Shown one piece after another: positions 49,121 to 64,000 of a stretch of 64,000 nucleotides of DNA. Positions within the stretch are counted from its first letter, which is position 1. Each line of letters begins with the position of its first letter. Under the pieces are notes generated by a model. That model worked only from the letters and a program-made list of their open reading frames with translations, was not told where the DNA came from and searched no databases. The stretch covers positions 4,900-68,899 of the forward strand of contig CAJQGR010000008.1 in assembly GCA_905477785.1 (NCBI GenBank), read 5' to 3'. This DNA is from an uncultured Hellea sp. (GTDB lineage Bacteria > Pseudomonadota > Alphaproteobacteria > Caulobacterales > Maricaulaceae). The position numbers and the translations under genes are program-made.

Positions 49121-50911
49121 TTAATCCAAACTCAAGACAACTCCTTCACGCCTCGGGTCAGCACCACCAATCAATTTTCCGTCTTCAGCTCTATAGATAA
49201 TATGTATTCCGCTAAATTCACCTTTTGAACGACGAACTTTATGACCTTTACTTTCAAGTCCCTTTATTAAAGTCTCAGACATACCAAACTCTTCAGCAGG
49301 TGCGCCCCTATCAATCTCACCTGTAATGTCATCTTTTAAACCCTTAGCTTCGACTGCAATACGGCCATTTCGAGCAATAATGTTTGGTAACTCAATGGCA
49401 TCTTGCGGAGTTAAACCCCAATCAATTATCCCAACGATTGTTTTGGCTGTGTAAGCGATAATTGAACTGCCTCCTGGCGAGCCTGAAGTGAAGATGAACT
49501 CTCCTTTTGGATTAAAAACAATCACGGGCGCCATCGATGATCTAGGACGCTTATTTGGAGCAACGGCATTAGCAACTAGGAGACCATTGATGTCCCTTGG
49601 TTGAAATGAAAAATCAGTAAGCTGATTGTTTAAAATAAAACCTGCCGCCATTCGTTGTGAGCCAAACGCCGCTTCGACGGTTGTAGTCATAGAAACAACT
49701 AAACCCTCTTTATCTACAACTGTAAAATGAGATGTACTAGGGTTATCAGGGGTAGAGTCCTCACCTCTGCTAAATTTATTAGGGTTACCTGCCGTTACAT
49801 TTACCATTGCTACATCTCTGCGAATCAAATCGGATCGAGATTTTAAATATTCTTTATCAATCATAGATTCAGCATCCACTGCTATAAAATCGGGATCACC
49901 AATATATTTATCCCTATCGGCGTAAGCTAAAAAACTAGCCTCAGAAAAAATATGCCAGCCGTCCAATGACATACCTAATTTATTCATATCAAAATTTTCT
50001 AAAACACCCAAAATCGATTGAACAGCAACTGGGCCACTACTAGGGGGTTGGGCTCCACAAATAATATTAGACCTATAAGTCGAACAAAGTGCTTCAGTTT
50101 TTTTAGCTTTATAGTTTTTCATATCTTCAATTGTTAAGCTTCCAGGAAGTGGTAGCTTATGTGTTACACGCAAAATCTCTTGGGCTATAGGGCCTTCAAG
50201 AAGTGCTCTAGGATTCTTCTGGAGTGCTCGAAGAGTAACTGCATATTGTGGATTATCTCTTAAAAATCCAACAGGTAATGGCGTTATGCCGTCATCAAGA
50301 AAAAAATAATCTTTAGCATTTTCATCTCTATTTAAAGCAAACCCTCCCATTCGAGCTGTAATATCTGCCATACGCGGGCTTACTTTAAATCCATTTTCAG
50401 CCATCTTGATTGCTGGCTCCAATTGTACACCCCAATTAAGTAAGCCATAATCCTTATGCGCCATGTGCAACATAGTTATGACCCCAGGAACTCCTGTCGA
50501 TACTCCAGATGCAATACCGTTTCGATAGGGTATGGGTTTTTTTGTTTGCGGGTCCATGAACATTTCTGGACTAGCGGCACTTGGCGCTTTTTCTCTTCCA
50601 TTATAACTCCATACTTTGGCAGTTTTAGGATCATAAACTACCATAAAAGCACCTCCCCCAAGTCCTGAACTTTGTGGTTCAACAAGACCCAACATGGCTT
50701 GAATGGCTATAGCTGCATCAATTGCCGAGCCTCCTGCTTCGAGAATTTCTACACCTGCGCGGCTTGCAAGAGGGTTGGCAGCAGCCACCATTCCTTTTGA
50801 TTTAGGTACTGTATGTCTAACTTTTGCATTTATTATACTTGCCGATACAATCTCAGCATGCACTATAGAGATCAGAAATATAGACAGAATAAATGAAGTA
50901 ATTTGTTTCAT
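49121..50911 (-). CDS. ggt: Gamma-glutamyltransferase (periplasmic)
   Basis: Signal peptide from ATG 50911, EPQSSGLGGG, STSHFTVVD (Thr nucleophile), LNNQLTDF, RPRSSMAP, GSPGG, ADPRREG. The ORF-track extension to 51163 is antisense to the next gene and was discarded. Confidence 0.95.
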   Translation of the reverse strand: MKQITSFILSIFLISIVHAEIVSASIINAKVRHTVPKSKGMVAAANPLASRAGVEILEAGGSAIDAAIAIQAMLGLVEPQSSGLGGGAFMVVYDPKTAKVWSYNGREKAPSAASPEMFMDPQTKKPIPYRNGIASGVSTGVPGVITMLHMAHKDYGLLNWGVQLEPAIKMAENGFKVSPRMADITARMGGFALNRDENAKDYFFLDDGITPLPVGFLRDNPQYAVTLRALQKNPRALLEGPIAQEILRVTHKLPLPGSLTIEDMKNYKAKKTEALCSTYRSNIICGAQPPSSGPVAVQSILGVLENFDMNKLGMSLDGWHIFSEASFLAYADRDKYIGDPDFIAVDAESMIDKEYLKSRSDLIRRDVAMVNVTAGNPNKFSRGEDSTPDNPSTSHFTVVDKEGLVVSMTTTVEAAFGSQRMAAGFILNNQLTDFSFQPRDINGLLVANAVAPNKRPRSSMAPVIVFNPKGEFIFTSGSPGGSSIIAYTAKTIVGIIDWGLTPQDAIELPNIIARNGRIAVEAKGLKDDITGEIDRGAPAEEFGMSETLIKGLESKGHKVRRSKGEFSGIHIIYRAEDGKLIGGADPRREGVVLSLD

Positions 50912-50969
50912 AAATTTTGCTTTCTTTATTACACGATTAACATAGATGTGACTTACAAAAGAGCAAGTA

Positions 50970-51923
50970 ATGAACAATACAATATTAGATGTAAATGGCT
51001 TAAGTGTAGGACAAGCACATGATAATGAGGTTAAAACAGGTGTAACAGTAGTTTTACCTGACAAGCCAGTAATATGCTCCGTAGATGTTCGAGGGGGTGG
51101 TCCCGGAACACGTGAAACAGAAACCTTAAATGATGGAGGTCTAATTGATAAAGTCCATGCCATCTGTTTATCGGGAGGGTCAGTTTACGGTTTAGCTGCA
51201 GCTGATGGAGTATGTGCCTGGCTTGGTAAAAAGCGTATAGGTTATGAAGTGGGACCCAGCCCTATACCTGTTTCTCCTATAGTACCAAGTGCGATACTTT
51301 TTGACAATGCAAATGGGGGGAACAAAAATTGGGGCATCAATCCACCTTTTAGAAGTCTAGGTATAAGAGCATGCGAGTCAGTTTCTAATCATTTAACTCT
51401 TGGTAGGATAGGAGCTGGATATGGAGCCATGTCCGGAATTTATAATGGCGGAATAGGTAGTGCTTCAGAGGCAATTAACGAATTCACCGTTGGAGCTTTA
51501 ATAGCTGCTAATTCTGTTGGGTCACCCTTTATGCCCGGTACTAAATGTCCTTGGGCTTGGCCATATGAAGTTAACAATGAGTTTGGTGGTGAGCGACCCC
51601 CGAAAAATTATAAATATGCGCACCCACAAGATACAAAGTTAAATTTCTTGAACAGAGCTGGTCAAAACACAGTCATAGGTGTTGTGGCCATCGATGCTAA
51701 TTTAACGCAAAATCAATTAAAACGAATTGCGATTATGGCTCAAGATGGAATAGCTATGGCAGTACAGCCTAGCCATACACCACTTGATGGCGATACAATT
51801 TTTGCAGTATCAACTGGTCATAAATCTTGCGATAACCCAACGATATTATCAGAATTGGGATCTGCGGCTGCGCGATGCGTGGCAAGGTCTCTCACTCGGG
51901 CGGTATATGAGGGGTCTAAATGA
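50970..51923 (+). CDS. P1/S58 family (DmpA-like) peptidase
   Basis: TGVTV, DVRGGGPGTRET, LSGGSVYGLAAADG, ANSVG, AQDGIA..V.PSHT..DGDTIFA. Confidence 0.9.
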   Translation: MNNTILDVNGLSVGQAHDNEVKTGVTVVLPDKPVICSVDVRGGGPGTRETETLNDGGLIDKVHAICLSGGSVYGLAAADGVCAWLGKKRIGYEVGPSPIPVSPIVPSAILFDNANGGNKNWGINPPFRSLGIRACESVSNHLTLGRIGAGYGAMSGIYNGGIGSASEAINEFTVGALIAANSVGSPFMPGTKCPWAWPYEVNNEFGGERPPKNYKYAHPQDTKLNFLNRAGQNTVIGVVAIDANLTQNQLKRIAIMAQDGIAMAVQPSHTPLDGDTIFAVSTGHKSCDNPTILSELGSAAARCVARSLTRAVYEGSK

Positions 51924-52402
51924 TTGGCGATATCGAAGCACACCATCATATAAAAATTTTAAAAATGAATGAAAGATTTGTTCATTGGCTTGCACCACTC
52001 AATGATAAAAGCTTGGCAATTCTTTTGAATAAAGCAACTTATAAAAAACAAATAAATGATGGAGATGGAGTATTAATTGGTTTCTCAAACAATGCTGATT
52101 ATGACCACAAAAATCTTTCTTGGTTAAGAAATAAATATAAAAAATTTCTATATATAGACCGAGTTATTATTAACCCTAAGGCACATGGCAAAGGATTAGC
52201 AAAAAAACTATATAATGATTTCGAAAAAAAAGCTTTATTGATGAAGATACCGAGGCTTGTTTGTGAAGTGAATACTAATCCCAATAATGAGAATTCACAT
52301 AAGTTTCATATCAAGAACAGTTTTAAACCTATAGGGGATATGGACTATGAAGAATCTGGAATAAGTGTTCGTTACTATGAAAAATATCTTTTAAATAAAT
52401 AA
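51920..52402 (+). CDS. GNAT family N-acetyltransferase
   Basis: FLYIDRVII...HGKGLA..LY, CEVN..P.NE.SH.FH...F; 4-nt overlap with the peptidase gene. Confidence 0.88.
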   Translation: MIGDIEAHHHIKILKMNERFVHWLAPLNDKSLAILLNKATYKKQINDGDGVLIGFSNNADYDHKNLSWLRNKYKKFLYIDRVIINPKAHGKGLAKKLYNDFEKKALLMKIPRLVCEVNTNPNNENSHKFHIKNSFKPIGDMDYEESGISVRYYEKYLLNK

Positions 52403-52498
52403 CAAACTTATTTTATTAAATACCAAACTAAAAAAAGCTTGCTTTTATATCGAACAGACGCTTTAACGCCACGAACTTATAGATTATCTTTAGTTCAT

Positions 52499-52575
52499 GC
52501 ACCGGTAGCTCAGCTGGATAGAGTACCTGACTACGAATCAGGGGGTCGGGGGTTCGAATCCTCCCCGGTGCGCCA
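52499..52575 (+). tRNA. tRNA-Arg(ACG)
   Basis: Acceptor GCACCGG/CCGGTGC, anticodon arm CCTGA-CTACGAA-TCAGG, GTTCGAATC T-loop, encoded CCA. Confidence 0.97.
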
Positions 52576-52664
52576 CTTCTATAATATAAGATACTGATTA
52601 ATAAAGATAAATTTTATAGCTATCTATCCTTAAACTCTTGCAGCTTATCAATTCCAATCATACA

Positions 52665-53756
52665 TTACGCATGTCCCCATTCTTTTAGAATCTGATTGAC
52701 GTTCGTCGGGACAGAGTTTTTGCGGCTTGTCTTAGGGTTCTGGCTTTTAAACCTTGGTGCTGGTGCCGCCTCAATGTTCCCTTCTATCGTCTGGTAGATT
52801 TGACGGTGTTTTATGTGGGGGTGTTCTGCAGCTTCCCCAGGATGGAGAACGGGCGCGAAACAAACATCCGTACCTTCCATGAGAGCTGACCATTCGTCTC
52901 GGGATTTGGTTTTGAAAATCTGGGTCAGCCGGGATTTCTGAACTGGCCAATTACCAGTATTCATTTGGTCCCTGAAATCAGGGTCATCGGACAAGTCTAA
53001 ATGCTTTAGTAAGAGAGAATAAAATTTAGATTCTAGAGATCCAATCGAAATAAAACCTCCGCAAGAACAAACGTATGTGTCAAACCAGTGAGGCCCATCC
53101 AGAACGCTTTTACCACGCTCAAAACTCACGGCCCCTGTAGCCTTTAGAGATAGAATGAGGTTCATCATATGAGCAGAGCCATCTATCATCGCTGCATCAA
53201 CAATATCACCTTTACCCGTTCGCTGAGCCTGAAGAATGGCTCCGAGCATTCCAATCGTGAGATATAATGCGCCCCCTGCGATATCTCCGATTATCGTAGG
53301 TGTCGCAAAGGGTGGGTCCCCCGGCTTTCCTGAATACCAAAGAGCGCCCGATAAGGCATTGTAGTTGATGTCGTGACCTGCCGCATGCGCAAGAGGCCCA
53401 TCTTGGCCCCATCCTGTGACTCGGCCATAGGCTAGCTTGGGATTAATTTCGCAGCATATATCTGGGCCAAGCCCAAGCCGCTCCATAACTCCCGGGCGCA
53501 TACCTTCGATAAGACCATCAGCATGCTCTACAAGTTTGAGTAACCGCGTCTTATCGTCATTGTCTTTGAGGTTTAGCTTTATGATGCGTTTGCCGCGTTT
53601 CGTAATTGTAGTATTGCCGCTATCGCCGAATGCAGGTGCCCCGGGACGTTCAATAACTATGACATCTGCTCCTAAATCAGCGAGATGCATGCCGCAAAAG
53701 GGTGCAGGTCCAATCCCCTCAATCTCTATGATTTTTATGCCTGATAAAACTGTCAT
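52665..53756 (-). CDS. CaiB/BaiF family III CoA-transferase, alpha-methylacyl-CoA racemase-like
   Basis: EGIGPAPF..M.LADLGADVI, EGMRPGVMERLGLG, GWGQDGP, GHDINY, GDIAGG, APAPRF. Confidence 0.92.
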   Translation of the reverse strand: MTVLSGIKIIEIEGIGPAPFCGMHLADLGADVIVIERPGAPAFGDSGNTTITKRGKRIIKLNLKDNDDKTRLLKLVEHADGLIEGMRPGVMERLGLGPDICCEINPKLAYGRVTGWGQDGPLAHAAGHDINYNALSGALWYSGKPGDPPFATPTIIGDIAGGALYLTIGMLGAILQAQRTGKGDIVDAAMIDGSAHMMNLILSLKATGAVSFERGKSVLDGPHWFDTYVCSCGGFISIGSLESKFYSLLLKHLDLSDDPDFRDQMNTGNWPVQKSRLTQIFKTKSRDEWSALMEGTDVCFAPVLHPGEAAEHPHIKHRQIYQTIEGNIEAAPAPRFKSQNPKTSRKNSVPTNVNQILKEWGHA

Positions 53757-54181
53757 GATTTTTTCTTGAATTTTTTAACGGTGCCTGAGAAGTTTAAGCA
53801 GGGTCGACCTTCGGCCGTTACAATACCGCGAATGAATATCAGAGATCCGCCGGCTCGAATGACTTCGCCGCGAGCTTCGATCAGCTCTCCTATCACAGGC
53901 CCATCAATGAACTCGCAGTTAAAGGCGACTGTAACGCCGTAATTTCCGTCTATGTGATCATAACAAAGGGCAAATAGTGCGAAGTCAGCAAAGGCCATAA
54001 GGCAGCCACCATGCATCACGCCGCCCGCATTCATGTGTTTACGGGCTGCGCGAAATGCGGAAACGTAGCTATCCTTCTCTTTCCTGAAATAGAATGGACC
54101 AGCTGTTTCGAACTCGAAGACTTCTTCCTTCCAGCTTAACCACTGCTTAAATTCTCCTTCAGTCTCCATAAAAGGGGTCAT
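53753..54181 (-). CDS. PaaI family hot-dog thioesterase
   Basis: HMNAGGVMHGG.L...AD motif, 142 aa. Confidence 0.9.
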   Translation of the reverse strand: MTPFMETEGEFKQWLSWKEEVFEFETAGPFYFRKEKDSYVSAFRAARKHMNAGGVMHGGCLMAFADFALFALCYDHIDGNYGVTVAFNCEFIDGPVIGELIEARGEVIRAGGSLIFIRGIVTAEGRPCLNFSGTVKKFKKKS

Positions 54182-57100
54182 GCAGAGGCCTTCGTCGTAG
54201 TTTTTTCCTGATAGGCAGACAGCAGCATATTCAAGTTCGTTGTCGCGTCCTTGACGCTCTTCTCTTTGATAAAGCCATAGCCGCGAATGGCATCAGGGAA
54301 TGAGGCGATATCTATTGCGAGCTTATGATTGTCTTGGTTTAGACCAAGAATAAGACTATCGACAGTTTCTTCATATGTTTTAATCAAGCCGCGTTCCATC
54401 TTCCGTTCTTCGGTATATCCGAAAATATCAAAAGCAGTGCCGCGCAAAGCACTCATCTTCGCCATAATTTTAAATATAGGCGTAATCCAGCCGCCGATTT
54501 CATACTTGCGGGGCTGACCCGTATGTGGGTCTTTCTTAGCTAAAAGGGGCGGAGAAAGATGATACTTGATTTTATATTTGCCCTCAAATGCCTCTTGGAG
54601 TTTGGCTCTGAACTCTGGCGCGGTCTGCAAACGGGCGACCTCATATTCATCCTTATAGGCCATTAGCTTATAGGCATATATTGCGACGGCGCGGGTTAGC
54701 CCGCTTAGGCCTTTTGTTTTTTGAGCCTCCGCTAAAGCCGCTTTCTCAACAAGGGCTTTATATCTGTCGGCATAAGCTGCATTTTGGTAAAGGGTTAAGT
54801 CTTGCATTCGGGCGGCGGTATATTCGTCATCTGTTTTAGGGGTTAAGGGTTTATCATTCAAAAAGGCCTTAATTGCTTGCGGGTCATGAGCCGCGAGGCG
54901 GCCCCATTCAAAGGCCTGTTTATTCCATTCAGGTTTCACCCCGTTAAGGTCAACCGCCTTGAAGATAGAGGCCCGTCCAATAGGCAGCGCGCCCTTTTGC
55001 CAAGCATACCCGACCAAAAAGAGGTTTGCACCAATGGAATTACCAAGAAGTTTTACCGCCAATTGCGTGGCGTCCAGATATTCAATGTTATCAGCGGACA
55101 GAACTGAGGAAAATCTGTTTTGAAGGGCCGTCATAGGATAATCGAGATTAGGGTCGTGAATAAAGTCACTCGACATTGTTTTTTCAAGATTAATGAAGGC
55201 TTTTGTTCTACGGGAATTTAATGTTTCTAAAACCTTGTCCATGCCTGTTGTCATCATATCGCAAGCAATTAACAAGTCCGTTGCACCAATCGTCAGTCTG
55301 GCCGTATTTATATCAGACTGCTCGTTGGCAAAACGTATATGGGTCATGACCGGGCCGCCTTTTTGTGAGAAGCCCATCTGATCAACGATCGACACACCTT
55401 TACCTTCCATGTGAGCCGCCGTACCCAGAAGCGCCCCAATCGTAATCACGCCTGTTCCGCCGACGCCTGCGATCAAGGCTCCATAGGTTTTAGATTTTTC
55501 TATTTTATAGATTTCGGGTTCCGGGATTACAGTTTTAAGACTGTCTCGCGCCTTACCACGTTTCATGTCCCCGCCGTGTATTGTCACAAAACTTGGACAA
55601 AATCCGTCAACGCAAGAATAGTCTTTATTGCAGGATGATTGGTGTATTTTTCTTTTCCGACCATACTCGGTATCGATTGGTTGAACTGAAAGACAATTGG
55701 ACTTTTTGGAACAATCTCCACAGCCTTCGCAGATGCGGTCATTGATGAAAGCGCGTTTAGCTGGATCCGGAAAAGTGCCACGTTTGCGACGTCTGCGTTT
55801 CTCCGCTGCACAAGTCTGGTCGTATATTAGAACTGTTGTCCCTTTGATATCGCGGAGTTCTCTCTGTACTTTATCCAGCTCTCGGCGATGGTGGATAGTT
55901 GTGCCTTTAGCAAAGCCAGCATTATTTCCATATTTATCTGGCTCGTCAGTGACGACGACTATGCGTTTCACTCCTTCTTGAAACACTTGATGTGTAATCA
56001 TGGGAACTGTTAGCTGCCCATCAACGGGTTGCCCGCCGGTCATGGCCACGGCGTCATTAAACAATATTTTGAAGGTAATATTTGACTTGGCTGCTATCGT
56101 TGCACGAATAGCTAAAGACCCACTATGGAAATATGTTCCATCTCCAAGCTGTTGAAAGACATGATTAGTCTCAACGAATGGTTCTTCACCAATCCACGGC
56201 GCGCCTTCAGCGCCCATATGTGTGAAGCCCTCGACATCGCGATCCATCCAAGTCGCCATGTAATGACACCCGACGCCACCAACACCCTTGCTGCCTTCTG
56301 GCACTTTCGTAGACGTGTTATGGGGGCAGCCAGAACAAAAATATGGAACGCGCCTTGTATTAATCGCATCGGCCTTGGCGAGTGTTTTTTCGCAATCATC
56401 CAGAAATTTGAGACGCTCATCAATAGATGGGCTTGTATAAAAATAAGCAATTCGGTCCGCGATAATCTTTGCGATACGGTCAGGCGTTGTTCGTTCGTAC
56501 GCAATTACAAGAGGCTTACCGTTTTCGTCCGTTCGTCCCACAATGCGCGGCCGCTTGCTTTTGGGTAAATCATAACATCCGCGCGTAAATCCGTTTTGAA
56601 TTTGTTCTCGTTTGTCTTCAATAATCAATACTTCATCCATGCCCTCGGCAAAGGTGCGATAAAGGTCGTCATCAGACGGAAACGGCATCGCGACTTTAAG
56701 AATGTTGATACCCAGTGATTTTGCCTTGGCTTCCGAAATACCAAGATCATGTAAAGCCTGTTGGACATTTCGCCATTCTTTGCCCATGGCGACAATGCCA
56801 AATTTTTTCTTTGGGCTTTCAAGTGTTACGCGATTTAGGTTATTTGCTCTTGCAAAGGCTAAAGCTGCAGGAAGTTTATATTTGCGTGCTCTCTTCCCCA
56901 TTCCGTAAATGTCATCACCCCGCCTTGCGTTAACCCCGTCAGGCGGAAATACAAATTTGGGATATTTAATTTTAATGCGATTATAATCACCATTGATTGA
57001 CGCCGCAGTTTCAATGGTTTCCGGTAATAATTTATATCCCACAAAGGACCCGCAAAAACGCGATAACGCAATGCCGTAGATTCCTAGATCGAATACGTCT

Positions 57101-57645
57101 TGGATATCCGCCGGATACAATACCGGCATGAGGAGGTCTTCGAATAAGAGCTCAGAATGATAAGGATCAACAGTGGACGTCATATCTGGGTCATCACCGC
57201 ACAGCACGAGTACGCCGCCATGCTTAGCAGACCCATGTAATGTCGCTTGACGTAATCCGTCTATCGTTTGATCCAGCCCTGGGCCTTTGCCATACCACAT
57301 GGCATAAACACCGTCATATTTCGCATCGCCTTTATAACCAACTTGCTGTGTCCCCCAGACAGAGGTCATAGCAAGGTTTTCATTTAGCCCTGGCCAAAAT
57401 TTAACGTGATGCTCTCCAAGAATAGCATTTCCAGCACGCCAGAGTTCTACATCAATCGCGGTCATAGGCGAACCCCGGTATCCGGAGATGAAACCACCTG
57501 TATTAAGACCTGCTTTCTCATCTATAAGTCGCTGCACAAGCATTAGCCTGACGATGGCTTGTTGACCAGTCACGTACACGCGGCCGCTATCCAGACGATA
57601 CTTATCGTCAAGCGTCATATTGGGAAGCTTTAGAGGCGCGTTCAT
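54178..57645 (-). CDS. Indolepyruvate ferredoxin oxidoreductase family protein (IorA-IorB fusion)
   Basis: GFISGYRGSP, FCSGCPHN, GVGCHYM, GDGTYFHSG (TPP), CEGCGDC ferredoxin motif, GVGGTGV, AYKDEYEVARL. Confidence 0.95.
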   Translation of the reverse strand: MNAPLKLPNMTLDDKYRLDSGRVYVTGQQAIVRLMLVQRLIDEKAGLNTGGFISGYRGSPMTAIDVELWRAGNAILGEHHVKFWPGLNENLAMTSVWGTQQVGYKGDAKYDGVYAMWYGKGPGLDQTIDGLRQATLHGSAKHGGVLVLCGDDPDMTSTVDPYHSELLFEDLLMPVLYPADIQDVFDLGIYGIALSRFCGSFVGYKLLPETIETAASINGDYNRIKIKYPKFVFPPDGVNARRGDDIYGMGKRARKYKLPAALAFARANNLNRVTLESPKKKFGIVAMGKEWRNVQQALHDLGISEAKAKSLGINILKVAMPFPSDDDLYRTFAEGMDEVLIIEDKREQIQNGFTRGCYDLPKSKRPRIVGRTDENGKPLVIAYERTTPDRIAKIIADRIAYFYTSPSIDERLKFLDDCEKTLAKADAINTRRVPYFCSGCPHNTSTKVPEGSKGVGGVGCHYMATWMDRDVEGFTHMGAEGAPWIGEEPFVETNHVFQQLGDGTYFHSGSLAIRATIAAKSNITFKILFNDAVAMTGGQPVDGQLTVPMITHQVFQEGVKRIVVVTDEPDKYGNNAGFAKGTTIHHRRELDKVQRELRDIKGTTVLIYDQTCAAEKRRRRKRGTFPDPAKRAFINDRICEGCGDCSKKSNCLSVQPIDTEYGRKRKIHQSSCNKDYSCVDGFCPSFVTIHGGDMKRGKARDSLKTVIPEPEIYKIEKSKTYGALIAGVGGTGVITIGALLGTAAHMEGKGVSIVDQMGFSQKGGPVMTHIRFANEQSDINTARLTIGATDLLIACDMMTTGMDKVLETLNSRRTKAFINLEKTMSSDFIHDPNLDYPMTALQNRFSSVLSADNIEYLDATQLAVKLLGNSIGANLFLVGYAWQKGALPIGRASIFKAVDLNGVKPEWNKQAFEWGRLAAHDPQAIKAFLNDKPLTPKTDDEYTAARMQDLTLYQNAAYADRYKALVEKAALAEAQKTKGLSGLTRAVAIYAYKLMAYKDEYEVARLQTAPEFRAKLQEAFEGKYKIKYHLSPPLLAKKDPHTGQPRKYEIGGWITPIFKIMAKMSALRGTAFDIFGYTEERKMERGLIKTYEETVDSLILGLNQDNHKLAIDIASFPDAIRGYGFIKEKSVKDATTNLNMLLSAYQEKTTTKASA

Positions 57646-58799
57646 TGGCTGACTTTTTCGATATGTTTGGAGGTTAGCTGCTTAACAGAGGTCACGCCCA
57701 TAAGACCCATTCCTCGCTCCACTTCAGCTCTCAATAGGTCAACAATCCTAGTCACTCCCGCTTCACCACCAACGGCTAGTCCGTAAATATAGGGTCTTGA
57801 AAATGAGACAGCATCGGCGCCTAGCGCCAAGGCTTTAATCATATGAGACCCTCGGCGGATACCTGAGTCCATAATAATTTCAATGTCGTTTCCGACCGCT
57901 TGACGGATTGGGGCAATGCGGTGGATTGCCGGGGAAGAACTATCTAGCTGGCGGCCACCATGGTTGGAAACAATGATAGCTGTAGCGCCCATTTTGAAAG
58001 CCTTCTTTGCATCTCCCACCGATTGTATGCCCTTAATAGCAAAGGGGCCTCCCCATTCTTTAGCAAGCCACTCTGCGTCCTTCCAGGTAACGGTCTTGTC
58101 CATCAAATGGTGGGCAAGCTCAAAGGTATTCATACCGCCGCCAAGAGCGTCCATACGGTGAGAAATATTTGCCATCTCAAATTTACCTGAGGTCAAAAAA
58201 CCTAAAGCCCATCTTGGATGAAGCGCAAAGTCCGGTAATGTGGATAATTTAAGCCTCGGCGGAAAACTTAGCCCGCTTCTGAGGTCGCGTTCTCGATTGC
58301 CTGAAATCGAACTGTCCACTGTGAGGCATAATGCATCATATCCAGCTTCTTTCGACCAAGCCACATGATCGCGCGTAATTTCCCTATCTTTTACGATATA
58401 AGACTGAAACATTTTGGGCCCACTCGAAGATGCGCCGACGGCTTTAATGCCTTGGGTAGAAAAGGTTGAAAGCCCATAGATGATGCCCGCTTTAGCAGCA
58501 GCTTTGGCGACAGCTATTTCTTTGTCGGGGTGAAACAAACCTGAACCACCGCTGGGAGAGAGATAAAAGGGGAGCTTCATATCAACACCCAAAACATTTA
58601 CGCTCATGTCAATATTGCTGACATCCACTAAAACATCAGGAATGAGATTATATTGATCGAAGGCCGTGAGATTATTGCGCAGAGCCGTTTCGTCGTCAGA
58701 GCCACCAGCCATGTAATCGTAAATAGCACGCGGTAGCAGGCGTTTAGCGGCCTGTTTGAAGTCTTCGACATTGTGGAGTTTATTTAGATTCATTTTCAT
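57642..58799 (-). CDS. FMN-dependent alpha-hydroxy acid oxidase/dehydrogenase
   Basis: YDYMAGG, TVD...GNRERD, IKG, SNHGGRQLD, DSGIRRG, ALALGA. Confidence 0.95.
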   Translation of the reverse strand: MKMNLNKLHNVEDFKQAAKRLLPRAIYDYMAGGSDDETALRNNLTAFDQYNLIPDVLVDVSNIDMSVNVLGVDMKLPFYLSPSGGSGLFHPDKEIAVAKAAAKAGIIYGLSTFSTQGIKAVGASSSGPKMFQSYIVKDREITRDHVAWSKEAGYDALCLTVDSSISGNRERDLRSGLSFPPRLKLSTLPDFALHPRWALGFLTSGKFEMANISHRMDALGGGMNTFELAHHLMDKTVTWKDAEWLAKEWGGPFAIKGIQSVGDAKKAFKMGATAIIVSNHGGRQLDSSSPAIHRIAPIRQAVGNDIEIIMDSGIRRGSHMIKALALGADAVSFSRPYIYGLAVGGEAGVTRIVDLLRAEVERGMGLMGVTSVKQLTSKHIEKVSQ

Positions 58800-58801
58800 A
58801 C

Positions 58802-59950
58802 CTAGAACGCTGAAATGCCAGTTAAAGCTCTGCCTATAATAAGTTTTTGAATTTCAGTTGTACCCTCTGTGAAGGGGAACACACGAACGGCGCGGTTTAA
58901 ATATTCAACCAGATATTCACGTATGATCCCGCTCGCGCCATGAATTTGAACGGCATCATATACGACTTCACAGGCCAGTTCGGTTCCATACCACTTCGTC
59001 ATTGCAACATGTACTTGGTCAGGTGCTCCGCGGTCGATCTGGTCCAGGGCTTTAAGGGCCATCAACTTGCCAGCTTCGATCTTGGTGGCCATTGTTGCCA
59101 ATTTATCTTGAATCATCTGTTTGCCCGCAATAGGGCCGCCAAACTGTTTGCGATCTTTAGCAAATGATAAGGCTTCATCGAGTGCGGCTTGGGCAATGCC
59201 AAGCGCCATCATTGTCACAATCGGACGAGACATAGCTAACGTCCCAAGCATAGATTTCATGGCGTTGGGAGCGGACACGACAACATTTTCTGCAGGCACT
59301 TTAACGTCATTAAAAAACACCTGAGCGGTCGACTGAGAATTGAGCGCAGTCTTCTCTAAATCTTTTGTTTGATAGCCGTGATTGCGCTCTACGAGAATGA
59401 GGCCGAGCCCTTGATCTGAACTGCCATCAGAAAAGTTGGCGAGTACAAATATGAAATCAGAATACCCTCCGCTGGAATTCCAAGTTTTTTCGCCGTTTAG
59501 GATGTAATTATCGCCGTCTTTCTTAGCCCTTAATTTCACCCCCGCCATATCTGATCCGCCGTCAGGCTCCGAGAGGCCAACGCTCGCGGCAGTATTGCAA
59601 TCCATCAAATCCCTTTGATATTTAGCCTTGAGGTGCTTGGGGGCTGCTGACATTAATTTGGTAGTGATTCCGTATATCTGTGTTGTTACAGCTATGTCGG
59701 GCGAAACTCGCGCCAGTTCATGCATTAAAAGGCCATAGGTGACCTGATCCAAATCCATCCCTCCATCGCTTTCGGACACCATGCCATTCACTACTCCAAA
59801 AGGGATCAGGCGTTTTTGGATGTCCAAAGCCATATCTTTAGGAATGAACTTATCACGATACTCATCAGCAATTGGCCGGATATCACTCTCTAAAAAGCGT
59901 TTGAATCCTTCCAACAATATCACTTGCTCTTCATTTAAAGAAAAATCCAT
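58802..59950 (-). CDS. Acyl-CoA dehydrogenase family protein
   Basis: MDFSLNEEQ, LSEPDGGSD, NGEKTW.S, R.QFG.PI...Q.IQ, QIHGASG, TEGTTEIQ. Confidence 0.95.
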   Translation of the reverse strand: MDFSLNEEQVILLEGFKRFLESDIRPIADEYRDKFIPKDMALDIQKRLIPFGVVNGMVSESDGGMDLDQVTYGLLMHELARVSPDIAVTTQIYGITTKLMSAAPKHLKAKYQRDLMDCNTAASVGLSEPDGGSDMAGVKLRAKKDGDNYILNGEKTWNSSGGYSDFIFVLANFSDGSSDQGLGLILVERNHGYQTKDLEKTALNSQSTAQVFFNDVKVPAENVVVSAPNAMKSMLGTLAMSRPIVTMMALGIAQAALDEALSFAKDRKQFGGPIAGKQMIQDKLATMATKIEAGKLMALKALDQIDRGAPDQVHVAMTKWYGTELACEVVYDAVQIHGASGIIREYLVEYLNRAVRVFPFTEGTTEIQKLIIGRALTGISAF

Positions 59951-60146
59951 AACGTCCTCTTACTTCAATCATTCATACATTTGACTGGGTGGTTTTGCTT
60001 GGTCAATTTTGGCAAAAACAAAGTCACCTTGATATAGAATTTATCCGACAACTAGGTTCATCGATTGTAGCAAATTTAATATTGCGCATAACACAACCCT
60101 GAGAAGACGTTTCATTAACCTCAGTTTGAATAGATTTGAAACGAGA

Positions 60147-61427
60147 TCAGTCAATGAGCTTGTCGCCTGAACCAAGAACGAGATAGCAAACTCCACCAAT
60201 CACGCTAATTATTGCTGTTACGATGAATACATTTTCATAGGATCCGGTTTGCTGAACAATATAACCAGCGGCAATCGCCCCTATTGCGCCAGCAGCGGTT
60301 CCAAAGGTGTTAAGTGTTCCATAGATAATATCGGCAAAACGCGGCGCAATATCCAGACTATTTGGAACTAGGCCTGCATAAGCGAAAGCTAATATCCCTA
60401 AGGCCGCGCACATCAAGATTGTTGCAGATTTTGCGCTTTCAGCATCTCTCAGAAAGTACATAAATATTGCAGAGCCTAATAAGCCAAAGCCAATTAAAAT
60501 TTTTCGTGTTTTTGTCGCGCTAATGCCAGTTTTCAGCATGTAATCTGCAACCCAGCCGGTCACATTCATCATGAGAAACATGACAATCCAAGGCAGCACT
60601 GCATATATCCCTGCCCCAGCGAGGTCGAGCTTATGTACATCGGAGAAGTAACTGGGAAGCCAGGATAGAAAAATATACAGCGTCCATGAAGCCGCAAAGC
60701 CTGTAATGCAAAGTGCCCAAACAGGCTTTGCTAAGAAGATTTCCTTCCAGGGGATAACTTTAGCTTTTTCTTTTACACCGCCCCCAGCCGCGATAATTGT
60801 TCTTTCATAGCTCGTAATCGATGGATGCTGATCCGGGTGTTCCTTTATCAAAAAATACCAAAAGATTGCCCAAATGAATCCCAAAGCTCCAAAGGCGTAA
60901 AAAATCATTTCCCAGCCATAAGTCGTTACAATCTTGGGGCCTAACAAAAGTGCGCCAACGGTTCCGAGAATCGTTCCAGAAGAAAGAAAGCTCATAACTC
61001 GAGATTGCTCTGTCTGAGGGAACCAACGTCCAACTACCGTAAAAGAAGACGGAGCTAGGCCAGCTTCACCAACACCCATCAGGAATCGTACGGCCAGTAA
61101 AGCGGGAATGGACATGAATGCCGCTATTGGCGTTATTAATGTGAAGACTGACCAAAAAACGACGGCCCAGCCAAGAACAAGTTTACCTCCAAATCGATTG
61201 GCGAGATAACCACCGCCAATTTGCATGCACAAATAACCCCAAAAAAAGAAGCTAAAGACATACCCTTTATCAACATCAGACCAGCCAAATTCCTTTTGCA
61301 TGCTGATGGCGGCAATCGAAATGTTTACGCGGTCAAGGTAGCAAATGACGAATGCAAAAAATGCTAAAACCAATACCGTCATACGTTTTGGCCAGAACGG
61401 CTTTTGCGTGTTTATTTCCGCTCCCAT
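60147..61427 (-). CDS. MFS transporter, anion:cation symporter (ACS/SLC17-like) family
   Basis: ICYLDRVNISIA, GGYLANRFGGK, RFLMGVGEA, RWFP..E, WLPSYF. ATG 61427 has an AAGGGG RBS; the ORF-track extension to 61775 overlaps the divergent gene. Confidence 0.92.
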   Translation of the reverse strand: MGAEINTQKPFWPKRMTVLVLAFFAFVICYLDRVNISIAAISMQKEFGWSDVDKGYVFSFFFWGYLCMQIGGGYLANRFGGKLVLGWAVVFWSVFTLITPIAAFMSIPALLAVRFLMGVGEAGLAPSSFTVVGRWFPQTEQSRVMSFLSSGTILGTVGALLLGPKIVTTYGWEMIFYAFGALGFIWAIFWYFLIKEHPDQHPSITSYERTIIAAGGGVKEKAKVIPWKEIFLAKPVWALCITGFAASWTLYIFLSWLPSYFSDVHKLDLAGAGIYAVLPWIVMFLMMNVTGWVADYMLKTGISATKTRKILIGFGLLGSAIFMYFLRDAESAKSATILMCAALGILAFAYAGLVPNSLDIAPRFADIIYGTLNTFGTAAGAIGAIAAGYIVQQTGSYENVFIVTAIISVIGGVCYLVLGSGDKLID

Positions 61428-61574
61428 AAATTCCCCTTTTTGCGCTACTCTATTAGAGCACGCTTCTGAAAGCTTATCAAATTGGGCACTTATACTGTCT
61501 GCGAGGCCTAATTCTCTAATATAGAATTGACAATTGCAGCTTGACGGCTCTTTTAAGACAAGTAGAGAATTTAT

Positions 61575-62663
61575 ATGTACAATGCCAAGCCTAATTTTAG
61601 CGATGATTATCAAGAGTCGCGCGCCAAGTTTCTTGCCGCGATGAGCAAACGAGGCGAGGTGATTTCCATTCGGCATCCTAAAAAAGGTCCGGACGGTCAA
61701 GACCTCTATCTCGATTTTGGTATAATTGGTCCGGACGACGCCCGAGGCGCGCTTATTTTGATTAGTGGCACTCACGGTCCTGAAATATTTGCTGGCTCAG
61801 GCCCACAAGCAGCACTCCTAAATTCAGGGCTAATCAATGATTATGCGGATCTCCGCGTTATTCTGGTCCACGCTCATAACCCTTATGGTTGTGCGTGGTT
61901 GCGGCGCACAGACCACAACAATATTGACCTTAATCGTAATTATTACGATTTCTCCAAACCCTTCATCCCGCATCCTGGCTATGACGTGTTGCGTCCGGTC
62001 ATGGTGCCCACTGAGTGGGATTCAGTCGCACTCGGTAAGGGCTTGGCGGATTATGAGGCCCAACATGGTAAGGTTGGATTGCTTGCCGCCATGGTCACGG
62101 GCCAAAGCCACGATCCGGATGGAATGTTTTTCCGTGGCGAGGGCCCGGCTTGGTCGCACATTCAAATGAAAGATGTGCTACCGAAACTAACAAAAACGCA
62201 AGACATTGTTAGCGTCATAGATTTCCATACTGGGCTAGGTCCTTATGGTGTACCCTATATGGTACACGGATACGAACCTGGCTCGTCGGAATTCATCGCG
62301 TTTAAAAAAGCCTACGAGGGGGAAGTTCGTTCGACCATGGACCCGGCGGATATTGACGAGGATCTCCCCGGCTCCCCCGAAGGCCCCATTGTCTTGGGAA
62401 TGAAGGCCTTGCTGCCCGGAAAACAGAGTTACGCTGTAGTCATCGAATACGGCACAGTACCACCGGAACAGGTCTTTGGTACACTGATGCATGACAATTG
62501 GATGCATGCCCACGGCACGCCGGGGACCGACGAATGGAACGCGGTGAAACAGAATGTGCGAGAAGTTTTTTATCCGCGTGAGGATAAGTGGAAAGACATG
62601 ATCTGGGAGCGGGCCGTCTGGGCCGTTGAGCGCTCGGCAAAACTGGCGCGCGGCGAATTTTAA
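61575..62663 (+). CDS. DUF2817 / M14-like zinc metallohydrolase
   Basis: SGTHGPE (HxxE), HNPYG...RR, NIDLNRNY, IDFHTGLG, IEYGT. Confidence 0.85.
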   Translation: MYNAKPNFSDDYQESRAKFLAAMSKRGEVISIRHPKKGPDGQDLYLDFGIIGPDDARGALILISGTHGPEIFAGSGPQAALLNSGLINDYADLRVILVHAHNPYGCAWLRRTDHNNIDLNRNYYDFSKPFIPHPGYDVLRPVMVPTEWDSVALGKGLADYEAQHGKVGLLAAMVTGQSHDPDGMFFRGEGPAWSHIQMKDVLPKLTKTQDIVSVIDFHTGLGPYGVPYMVHGYEPGSSEFIAFKKAYEGEVRSTMDPADIDEDLPGSPEGPIVLGMKALLPGKQSYAVVIEYGTVPPEQVFGTLMHDNWMHAHGTPGTDEWNAVKQNVREVFYPREDKWKDMIWERAVWAVERSAKLARGEF

Positions 62664-62714
62664 TATATAATCGCCGTATTAGTCGGCCAGGCAGGTGTCC
62701 TGTCAATTCACCCC

Positions 62715-63836
62715 TTAACTGCGCATTCTTTTACCCTTGGGATCAAAAAACGAATAACCTTTTAAGACCTCGGCTCCGACAATTCCGTCTTCGGTCTTTA
62801 TGCGAACTTTCCCGTCTGTGATCAGATTTTTGTGGTTCTTAGCAAAGGAAATCCCAATAGTTTTATCCAATATGTGACTGTAGTGCACAGACGGCATTTT
62901 TCCGACTTCTTCGTCGCCGGCCATCATTATTCCGGCAGGCGAAATGGCACACTTTCCTTGGGTTTGAAAGCGCACAAGCCGTCTCTCTGGCGTATTGTTT
63001 TCAAGGGCCTTTAAGGCATCTTCGCCGACAAACCCTGTGTGACCGCGGTCCCAGGTAAAACTCATTCCGGCTTCGAATAAATTGGCTGTCCCATCAATAT
63101 CATGGCCGGGAATGATATGACCTTTTTCCAGACGTAATACTGACATACCCATGATAGCGGTGGGTTTTGCGCCGTAAAGTTCGCCCGCACCGCGGAGTTT
63201 GTTCCAAATTTTCACGGCCTCACCTGATGGAACGTGGAGTTCAAATCCTAATTCACCCAAGAATCCGATCCGCAAGACCCGGCAGGGAACATTCGCGATG
63301 TCCATGTCTTTGATACGCATAAAGCGAAAGGCATCTTTGGAAATATCGCCCTCGGTGATGGCGCTTAGAATTTCCCGAGCTTTTGGCCCGGCTAGATTGA
63401 TAGCGGCAAAGTCATGAGATTGGTCCGCGATTTGGTAATCGAAGCCGGCCTCGCTACAGTGTTTTGTGATCCAGTCTTGGAAGGTTGCACTACGGCCCGT
63501 ACTTGTCATCAGATAAAATTCGTTGTCTGATCGGCGGCTGACCACGCCGTCGTCGATGCCGCAGCCATTTTCGTCAAGAAGGACAAAGTGCGTGACATGG
63601 CCAGGTTTCAGATCCTCCACACTTTTGGGGATGACACGCCCAATCGCTTTGGCCGCGTCTTTACCGGTAATGGAAAACTTCCCAAAACTTGAGCTGTCCA
63701 TAATAATGGCGCTTTCGTGAGCTGTGGCGGCTTCCATTTCTGGATCGCCGAAAATAGCAATGCGTTCCCATTCTCCAAATGTTGCGGCAATGCCGCCAGC
63801 TTCCAACTGAATGTCGTGTAAAGGTGTTCGTTTCAT
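62715..63836 (-). CDS. Stand-alone aminomethyltransferase (GcvT-like) protein
   Basis: MKRTPLH, D.SSFGKF.ITG.DA, DDGVV.R...NEFYLMT, AINLAGPKAR, RIGFLGELGFELH, LRLEKGH, FFDPKG.R. Start moved to ATG 63836. Confidence 0.88.
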   Translation of the reverse strand: MKRTPLHDIQLEAGGIAATFGEWERIAIFGDPEMEAATAHESAIIMDSSSFGKFSITGKDAAKAIGRVIPKSVEDLKPGHVTHFVLLDENGCGIDDGVVSRRSDNEFYLMTSTGRSATFQDWITKHCSEAGFDYQIADQSHDFAAINLAGPKAREILSAITEGDISKDAFRFMRIKDMDIANVPCRVLRIGFLGELGFELHVPSGEAVKIWNKLRGAGELYGAKPTAIMGMSVLRLEKGHIIPGHDIDGTANLFEAGMSFTWDRGHTGFVGEDALKALENNTPERRLVRFQTQGKCAISPAGIMMAGDEEVGKMPSVHYSHILDKTIGISFAKNHKNLITDGKVRIKTEDGIVGAEVLKGYSFFDPKGKRMRS

Positions 63837-64000
63837 GACGGGTTCAATTCCTTTTCCAGTGAATAGGTCCTTTCTTTTAAGTCGATCAGCATTCAAGATA
63901 GAAAATCTCGCGATTGAATAAAACTCATAACGTAAAGATAAGTATTCAATTCGAAGAATTCTCATATCTGGGGTCACAACAAAGGGATGAAATATGAGCG

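Follow-up and report, generated by a model that had tools for sequence, protein, structure and literature searches.

In the window, which is the whole stretch of 64,000 nucleotides that was analysed, a tRNA-Arg(ACG) gene predicted by ARAGORN (52499..52575, forward strand; 3′ end CCCCGGTGCGCCA) follows a low-GC core flank that includes the genes of an S58 (DmpA-type) peptidase (50970..51923, forward strand; Pfam PF03576) and a GNAT acetyltransferase (51920..52402, forward strand; Pfam PF00583). The order S58-GNAT-tRNA-Arg is conserved in genomes of the same genus at 65-81% nucleotide identity. The CCA end of the tRNA is followed by its 33-nt ancestral 3′ flank (52576..52608), by a 53-nt relic of xylA (52609..52661, reverse strand) and by 9 filler bases (52662..52670). 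The relic is a decayed internal fragment of a xylose isomerase gene with 89% nucleotide identity to xylA of the genomes G013, G005 and G010, and its translation is MIGIDKLQEFKDR* vs AEMIRNDKLQEFKDDRYKNW in XylA. Beyond the filler, a mid-GC island (block B; GC 0.47), delimited by composition and distribution, begins at 52671, 95 nt past the CCA and within the last codons of a CoA-transferase gene, and continues through the window end at 64000 to the end of contig C8 (C8:57570-80884, 23.3 kb). The genome is a metagenome-assembled genome (MAG) of 92 contigs, 97% complete, with a size of 1.83 Mb and 37% GC.

The part of block B in the window encodes, on the reverse strand, a family III CoA-transferase (52665..53756; PF02515, E 1.7e-75), a 4HBT-type thioesterase (53753..54181; PF03061), a fused indolepyruvate/2-oxoacid:ferredoxin oxidoreductase (IOR)-like protein of 1155 aa (54178..57645; PF20169, PF01558, PF02775), an FMN-dependent 2-hydroxy-acid dehydrogenase (57642..58799; PF01070, E 2e-127), an acyl-CoA dehydrogenase (ACAD; 58802..59950; PF00441, PF02770, PF02771) and an MFS transporter (60147..61775; PF07690), in which the match begins at residue 139 and the real start probably lies downstream of the listed GTG. 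These are followed by the first of two copies of a DUF2817 protein (61575..62663, forward strand; PF10994), the second being at L001 894-1979, and by a GcvT-like aminomethyltransferase-family protein (62715..63977, reverse strand; PF01571). Block B as a whole holds a five-gene operon leading from 2-hydroxy-acid/2-oxo-acid to acyl-CoA, MFS transporters, the DUF2817 and GcvT-like genes, MaoC hydratases, acyl-CoA dehydrogenases, a PaaA/PaaC-like oxygenase set, a thiolase-like/ChsH2-like pair, and AraC and TetR regulators. Its cargo consists solely of metabolic, transport and regulatory genes.

The composition of block B deviates from that of its host genome in GC, GC3 and tetranucleotide usage, as is characteristic of a genomic island. 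The maximum-likelihood GC change point lies at 52697, where GC rises from 0.387 to 0.473 (log-likelihood gain 95); in 2-kb windows the values are 0.38-0.41 upstream of the tRNA-Arg and 0.45-0.50 downstream, and the elevated GC runs past the window end to the end of C8, a total of 23.3 kb, without returning to low GC. An earlier note, made from the letters of the window, had reported a step from about 33% GC after the tRNA; the step is real, but the figure fits only the ~500 nt that directly precede the tRNA (0.28) and the 86-nt spacer behind it (0.24). GC3 is 0.20-0.27 in five flank genes vs 0.44-0.54 in eight block genes, and the GC of block B (0.469) is 4 SD above the 5-kb windows of the genome (mean 0.370, SD 0.025). 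Tetranucleotide usage of block B correlates with the rest of the genome at 0.60 (null mean 0.933, null minimum 0.885), and at 0.92-0.93 with DNA of Hellea sp. MAG-168 and with another mid-GC block of the same genome, A. In composition, block B is foreign to its host. Another high-GC stretch, at the end of contig C33, is an rRNA operon.

In relatives, the 13-nt 3′ end of the same tRNA-Arg, CCCCGGTGCGCCA, is the att core of islands. Att repeats and integrase-like ORFs are found at this tRNA in G011, G009, G002 and G013, with the 13-mer repeated 12.1 kb downstream in G011, 9.4 kb in G009 and 2.05 kb in G013, and the integrase ORF (DUF6538 + SAM-like + tyrosine-recombinase) lies ~125 nt past the tRNA, at the tRNA-proximal end. 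Different cassettes occupy this one locus, namely an RM-type island (G011), a C5-methylase island (G002), a 2-kb insert with blocks C16 and A (G013), xyl genes (the metagenome contig L110) and, in the genome under study, block B.

Because relatives use exactly this 3′ end as att, with an integrase ORF and 13-nt repeats 9-12 kb off, and because the right border of block B lies beyond the end of C8, block B could be a classical integrase-mediated island with its integrase and second att copy to the right of the contig end. This explanation is improbable, however, because the att flank next to the tRNA is whole and carries no insert: the CCA is followed by 33 nt equal to the post-att flank of the sister species G013, and positions 52562-52603 are 95% identical to the sequence after the second att copy in that genome (L018 8999-8958). 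Block B begins behind the xylA relic, within the final codons of a gene, and its start lacks any partial copy of the tRNA; the contig stops inside the block. In the whole assembly, CCCCGGTGCGCCA occurs once, and a search for a second copy of the tRNA flank found none. The integrase of the relatives is tRNA-proximal, and the genome under study has none there; its 97%-complete assembly contains two tyrosine recombinases, both Xer-sized and on contigs other than that of block B, and tblastn found no remnant of the relatives' integrase in it. No integrase, transposase or other mobility family came up when the larger ORFs of the block, over all 23.3 kb, were scanned against Pfam. The earlier note, which had seen no integrase, transposase or repeat of the tRNA 3′ end, was right on this point, but not in placing the island at the tRNA att site, which is empty, or in expecting an integrase or att site to the right, neither of which is seen in 23.3 kb. 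Because nothing occupies the att site and an integrase is lacking, block B was most likely placed by recombination in the plasticity zone.

The join itself could be artificial, as the same note had allowed, if the assembler had jumped to a co-occurring mid-GC organism or to another locus of the same genome, either at the conserved tRNA or through a 141-nt remnant of the CoA-transferase gene. The fragmentation of the MAG into 92 contigs is compatible with such a chimera, and two metagenome contigs show other arrangements. In L110 (Ga0222719_10013515), from a conspecific genome, the arrangement S58-GNAT-tRNA-flank-relic-CoA-transferase 3′ end is repeated with 99.2% identity over 50538-52811, and the 3′-terminal 141 nt of the CoA-transferase gene (52671..52811, reverse strand) are the sole part of block B retained; past 52811 this independent contig continues into low-GC DNA with an intact xylA and holds no remainder of the block. 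In L044 (Ga0206126_10002085), the full block B, 99% identical, adjoins a different mid-GC block and not the tRNA (B followed by A), and homology with the window breaks between 52670 and 52671. Furthermore, the assembly lacks xylA and xylB, the genes that come after the remnant in L110, and contig C57 begins within their neighbouring gene.

Against a chimera, the junction sits 95 nt beyond the tRNA in unique low-GC sequence, and the bin contains neither of the alternative arms, be it the spacer of L044 or the sequence with which L110 continues. The 141-nt copy in the window has three private SNPs, and thus was not spliced together from the alleles of L110 and L044. The junction also leaves a mark in the protein: the CoA-transferase takes its final Ala codon and its stop codon from the filler, and ends in ...EWGHA* at the tRNA junction vs ...EWGHREFPFF* in L044. 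Four full-length variants, 97-98% identical to the window copy, all end in ...EWGHA* and occur on 59 public contigs (10 + 29 + 13 + 7) from NCBI, JGI, ENA and Logan; one variant bears the name 'CoA transferase [Hellea sp.]' and has four NCBI accessions. The exact GNAT protein is found on 209 public contigs, the longest of 1,979,434 nt, and this is the longest contig for the exact flank proteins GNAT and PGK and for exact block B proteins alike (thioesterase, ACAD, second DUF2817, thiolase-like, second MFS and the last ORF of C8); the exact FBA and block B variants have a common longest contig of 1,565,362 nt. Judging from the two-codon C-terminal signature together with these shared longest contigs, block B probably adjoins the tRNA in megabase-scale contigs. 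A jump through the CoA-transferase remnant, whether between genomes or at a within-genome repeat, is rejected on the public protein-cluster contig data. With the junction and block B recurring in many independent assemblies, including megabase-scale contigs with flank genes, the join is reproduced, the block genes are present on long conspecific contigs, and mis-assembly, now very improbable, is largely refuted. Because the contig is trustworthy at the junction, the catabolic genes to its right can be assigned to a small Hellea-type bacterium.

Block B is restricted to this species among its close relatives. It is in none of the 16 other genomes of the genus, among them those of the three nearest low-GC species, so that it is not a block that all close relatives carry, and a colinear cluster is present in one of 257 genomes of the family, the mid-GC Hellea sp. 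MAG-168, with 68-76% nucleotide and 62-81% amino acid identity. Neither 400 genomes from the order nor a scan of species representatives yielded a closer relative of the block; because none of these representatives has a CoA-transferase above 83% amino acid identity, no donor is identified. The genus is GC-heterogeneous, with 47-55% GC at this locus in its larger members, and the typical composition of the family resembles block B, but it is scarcely credible that the block is an ancestral mid-GC segment held GC-rich by selection in a lineage that drifted to low GC, because all 16 other species of the genus lack it, the biggest difference is in GC3, the least constrained measure, a separate native paralogue of the IOR-like gene, 72% identical in nucleotides and of the low-GC clade, lies on contig C51, and a deletion variant is present within the species. 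The acquisition had been called recent, and this holds relative to the split from the sister species, but the block has already spread widely within the species, where its diversity is 2-3%.

Very probably, therefore, the GC step is where a real island of the chromosome, 23.3 kb long or longer, begins on its left side. A streamlined Hellea-type species would have gained this island horizontally, the source being a mid-GC (~47-50%) bacterium of its own family, and the island lies in a plasticity zone that follows tRNA-Arg(ACG). A horizontally gained catabolic island in a tRNA-linked hotspot, as first proposed, is supported by these data. In larger relatives, the DUF6538-type tyrosine integrase inserts islands at the 13-nt tRNA-Arg 3′ end; in the genome under study, the att site is empty, and block B is joined non-site-specifically, 95 nt further on, to the decayed xylA fragment. 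Its placement was presumably due to recombination, either illegitimate or homology-facilitated with an anchor in the xyl locus, and not to an integrase of its own, and the block would now be cargo unable to move, though deletion can remove it, as in the variant L110. Homology-facilitated illegitimate recombination in natural transformation is said to have been described by de Vries and Wackernagel in 2002. The likeness is offered as a lead, and consists of one border without homology, a resident gene of which a piece has been duplicated (the xylA relic) and an intact xylA on the other side in L110.

Block B illustrates, in an unexceptional way, a well-known phenomenon, the tRNA-linked hotspot of gene gain, and the value of the case is therefore chiefly for annotation and clade genomics. 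Additive flexible genomic islands at tRNA hotspots were described in the Alteromonas pangenome (Lopez-Perez and Rodriguez-Valera, 2016; PMC4898812). As in those islands, a single tRNA-adjoining site holds cassettes that differ by species or strain, the cargo is metabolic, some cassettes retain a direct repeat of the partial tRNA (here G013, G009 and G011), and some are closer between species than the core (here blocks A and C16). Unlike them, block B has no bounding tRNA repeat and lies off the att point, an illegitimate junction joins it to a gene relic, and the host is a streamlined alphaproteobacterium in which islands are +10% in GC. The tycheposon-built islands of Prochlorococcus (Hackl et al., bioRxiv 10.1101/2020.12.28.424599) are similar in that flexible genes of a streamlined marine genome are gathered beside specific tRNAs, with degenerated elements, partial tRNAs and nutrient-use cargo. 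However, tycheposons are defined by a site-specific integrase and replication hallmark genes, none of which are in block B or the genome; the integrase of the relatives at tRNA-Arg is a DUF6538-type ORF, and is set beside tycheposons by description. Taken together, a streamlined, AT-shifted pelagic lineage appears to extend its metabolic repertoire by acquiring, in a plasticity zone linked to a tRNA, cassettes of larger relatives with a mid-range GC content.

Because L044 carries block B in a different context, more than one arrangement is in circulation. Contig C8 stops inside the block, and no contig overlapping its end is found in the assembly. Between G000 and G013, blocks A and C16 share 85-95% nucleotide and 89-97% amino acid identity vs 81-84% nucleotide identity for flanks and core, so that these cassettes are shared at higher identity than the core; they amount to 22 kb, G000 has them at tRNA-Ser and G013 at tRNA-Arg, and att-like repeats were not found at their borders (the X-A junction and the tRNA-Ser end). 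It is conceivable, if rather doubtful, that such integrase-less mid-GC catabolic modules (B, and the 22-kb A + C16) are discrete units that are reshuffled among tRNA-Arg and tRNA-Ser hotspots and joined end to end in varying order in streamlined Hellea genomes, as B and A are in L044, perhaps because DUF6538-type integrases from larger relatives act on them in trans, or through hotspot-specific recombination. Blocks B, A and C16 together give a foreign signature to ~45 kb of the 1.83-Mb genome. A 107-nt element is common to L110 and C57:4206-4309.

The tRNA-Arg(ACG) gene (52499–52575; ARAGORN) is followed by a sharp rise in GC content, from 0.38–0.41 upstream of the tRNA to 0.45–0.50 from ~52.7 kb through the window end (2-kb windows), with a maximum-likelihood change point at 52697 (GC 0.387 to 0.473; log-likelihood gain 95). 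The upstream value of 33% given in the earlier note fits just the few hundred bases that directly precede the high-GC block, but the step itself is confirmed by these profiles, by GC3 (0.20–0.27 in five flank genes versus 0.44–0.54 in eight block genes) and by tetranucleotide usage, for which the deviations of the block and the rest of the genome correlate at 0.60, against a mean of 0.933 and a minimum of 0.885 for 41 core 20-kb chunks. The window corresponds to G000:C8:4900–68899 in an assembly (G000) of 92 contigs, 1.83 Mb and 37.0% GC, and the high-GC stretch covers 23.3 kb, reaching the end of contig C8, on which low GC is nowhere regained. The highest GC in the bin (0.515) belongs to the 2823-nt contig C29, which may represent a further piece of island DNA or a contaminant.

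The block starts 95 nt beyond the CCA of the tRNA, and not at the tRNA itself. Positions 52562–52603, comprising the tRNA 3′ end and 28 nt, share 95% identity with sequence of the sister species G013 that sits after a second copy of the last 13 nt of the tRNA, 2.05 kb downstream of it. This indicates that G013 carries an insert flanked by att copies precisely at the end of the tRNA, and that the site in G000 is empty. The 33-nt flank is followed by an antisense, internal 53-nt fragment of a xylose isomerase gene (52609–52661; 89% identity to xylA of three sister species), whose translation, MIGIDKLQEFKDR*, compares with AEMIRNDKLQEFKDDRYKNW in XylA. The next nine bases provide the terminal Ala codon and stop codon of a family III CoA-transferase, and homology to the other known context of the block starts at 52671; from this succession it follows that the border is a non-site-specific junction within the last codons of a gene. 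The block is a genuine, ordinary island, and the island reading of the earlier note is correct in outline, but its suggested link to the tRNA att site is not supported, because the site is empty and the block starts beyond it. Despite the xylA relic, xylA and xylB are missing from the G000 assembly, in which contig C57 (1–1472) begins within a gene for an 800-aa protein located ahead of xylB-xylA in relatives.

Within the window, the block encodes the CoA-transferase, a 4HBT thioesterase, a fused 1155-aa IOR-like oxidoreductase, an FMN-dependent 2-hydroxy-acid dehydrogenase and an acyl-CoA dehydrogenase in a five-gene run (the first three boundaries are stop-to-start overlaps and the fourth is a 2-nt gap), followed by an MFS transporter, a DUF2817 protein and a GcvT-like protein. 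Past the window lie a second DUF2817 protein, MaoC-type hydratases, a further acyl-CoA dehydrogenase and MFS transporter, AraC and TetR regulators, PaaA/PaaC-like subunits with PaaD-like and ferredoxin partners, and a thiolase-like protein with a ChsH2-type OB-fold partner. The DUF2817, GcvT-like, DUF2817 order (61575–63977 and L001 894–1979) is a local duplication or insertion inside the island; at this position, the syntenic cluster in Hellea sp. MAG-168 contains one DUF2817 gene and lacks a GcvT-like gene.

Pfam scans of the larger ORFs in the block revealed no mobility gene, which bears out the earlier observation that no integrase was visible, and the only two tyrosine recombinases in the whole assembly are Xer-sized and located on other contigs. 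Because contig C8 ends before the right border of the block is reached, an integrase could still be present at that border, although we consider this unlikely. The locus combines an empty att site, no integrase and an illegitimate border beside a duplicated xylA fragment, and a deletion variant of the block exists in conspecific DNA (metagenome contig L110). We infer that the block was fixed through recombination in a plasticity zone, possibly by homology-facilitated illegitimate recombination with its anchor in the xyl locus, and that it is now non-mobile cargo.

A chimeric join in contig C8 was at first made plausible by two metagenome contigs. L044 (Ga0206126_10002085), 99.0% identical to 52671–55700, continues past the CoA-transferase not into the tRNA but into another mid-GC block, A, which matches one end of contig C14 in G000 at 91–94% identity. 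L110 (Ga0222719_10013515), 99.2% identical to 50538–52811, covers the region from the S58 peptidase through GNAT, the tRNA, the flank and the relic to the final 141 nt of the CoA-transferase, and then exits to low-GC DNA that carries a 540-aa gene together with intact xylA and xylB. L110 proves that the relic/CoA-transferase junction exists in an independent sample, but alone is compatible with G000 having either the whole block or only a 141-nt remnant. However, four full-length (363-aa) CoA-transferase variants, 97–98% identical to the window's copy and found on 10, 29, 13 and 7 contigs (NCBI, JGI, ENA, Logan), all end in ...EWGHA*, the ending produced by this junction, and one of them is named 'CoA transferase [Hellea sp.]'. 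Furthermore, the longest contig, of 1,979,434 nt, is the same for the exact GNAT and PGK of the flank and for six exact block proteins distributed across the entire 23 kb (thioesterase, ACAD, second DUF2817, second MFS, thiolase-like and last C8 ORF), and exact FBA and block-protein variants share a contig size of 1,565,362 nt; the simplest reading of these shared contigs is that near-complete chromosomes of the species hold flank and block together. In addition, the bin contains no alternative arms, and three SNPs in the shared 141 nt are private to the window's copy. Given the L110 junction, the ...EWGHA* variants and the shared longest contigs, the mis-assembly offered as an alternative in the earlier note can be dismissed as highly improbable. 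The CoA-transferase ends in ...EWGHREFPFF* in L044 and in ...EWGSEK* in a third set, and each of the three C-termini in public data (GHA*, GSEK* and GHREFPFF*; 52665–52673 versus L044 3025–3051) marks a different context beyond this end of the block.

The block is absent from all 16 other species of the genus, which hold only a 71–73% identical paralogue of the IOR-like gene (on contig C51 in G000), and was acquired after G000 and the sister species had diverged. Among 257 family genomes, one contig, from Hellea sp. MAG-168, carries a colinear cluster (68–76% nt and 62–81% aa identity; GC 0.48), and the nearest CoA-transferase is from a Litorimonas MAG (83% aa identity); no closer relatives of the block were found in 400 order genomes or species representatives. 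The tetranucleotide signature of the block matches MAG-168 at 0.92 and mid-GC members of its own genus at 0.86–0.89. On this basis, the donor was probably an unsampled mid-GC relative within the family.

The tRNA-Arg(ACG) locus is a hotspot. Directly past the same tRNA, G002 and G011 harbor an ORF with DUF6538, SAM-like and weak Phage_integrase matches, and G009 probably has the same type, with a weak domain match only. The tyrosine-recombinase-like proteins of G002 (L039 8556–9935) and G011 (L040 15876–17249), with a DUF6538 N-terminus and sub-threshold Phage_integrase matches, are ~458 aa long, start ~125 nt past the tRNA and are 53% identical; they represent a divergent family specific for the tRNA-Arg(ACG) 3′ end, with restriction-modification cargo (a C5 methylase in G002, an MmeI-type enzyme in G011). 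A second copy of the 13-nt tRNA end lies 12.1 kb away in G011 and 9.4 kb away in G009. The 2.05-kb insert of G013 (L018, G013:C17, 8986–11046), bounded by the 13-nt direct repeat, has a single 561-aa ORF with a GC of 0.52 and no Pfam match; it is the remnant of an insertion at the att site and has no integrase. The additive flexible genomic islands of Alteromonas (PMC4898812) show the same pattern as this locus, and the tRNA-linked islands of Prochlorococcus (bioRxiv 10.1101/2020.12.28.424599) are similar, although their hallmark genes are absent from the block.

Past the 2-kb insert, a single G013 contig carries two further mid-GC cassettes, C16 and A, located between tRNA-Arg and core sequence. 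These ~22 kb form a second mid-GC island in G000 (C14:56793–68186 and C16:1–10100; L002, L004), flanked by core DNA on one side and by the 3′ end of tRNA-Ser(GCT) on the other, with 85–95% nt and 89–97% aa identity to G013; this site is empty in the sister species G005. The second island encodes sulfatases, a GST, a metallo-beta-lactamase fold protein, an AMP-ligase and a TonB receptor. Contigs C16 (10665–11014) and C72 (172–509) terminate in the same tRNA-Ser, with 230-nt 3′ flanks that are only 85% identical, and this assembly fork suggests that the sampled population contains two haplotypes, one carrying the island and one lacking it.
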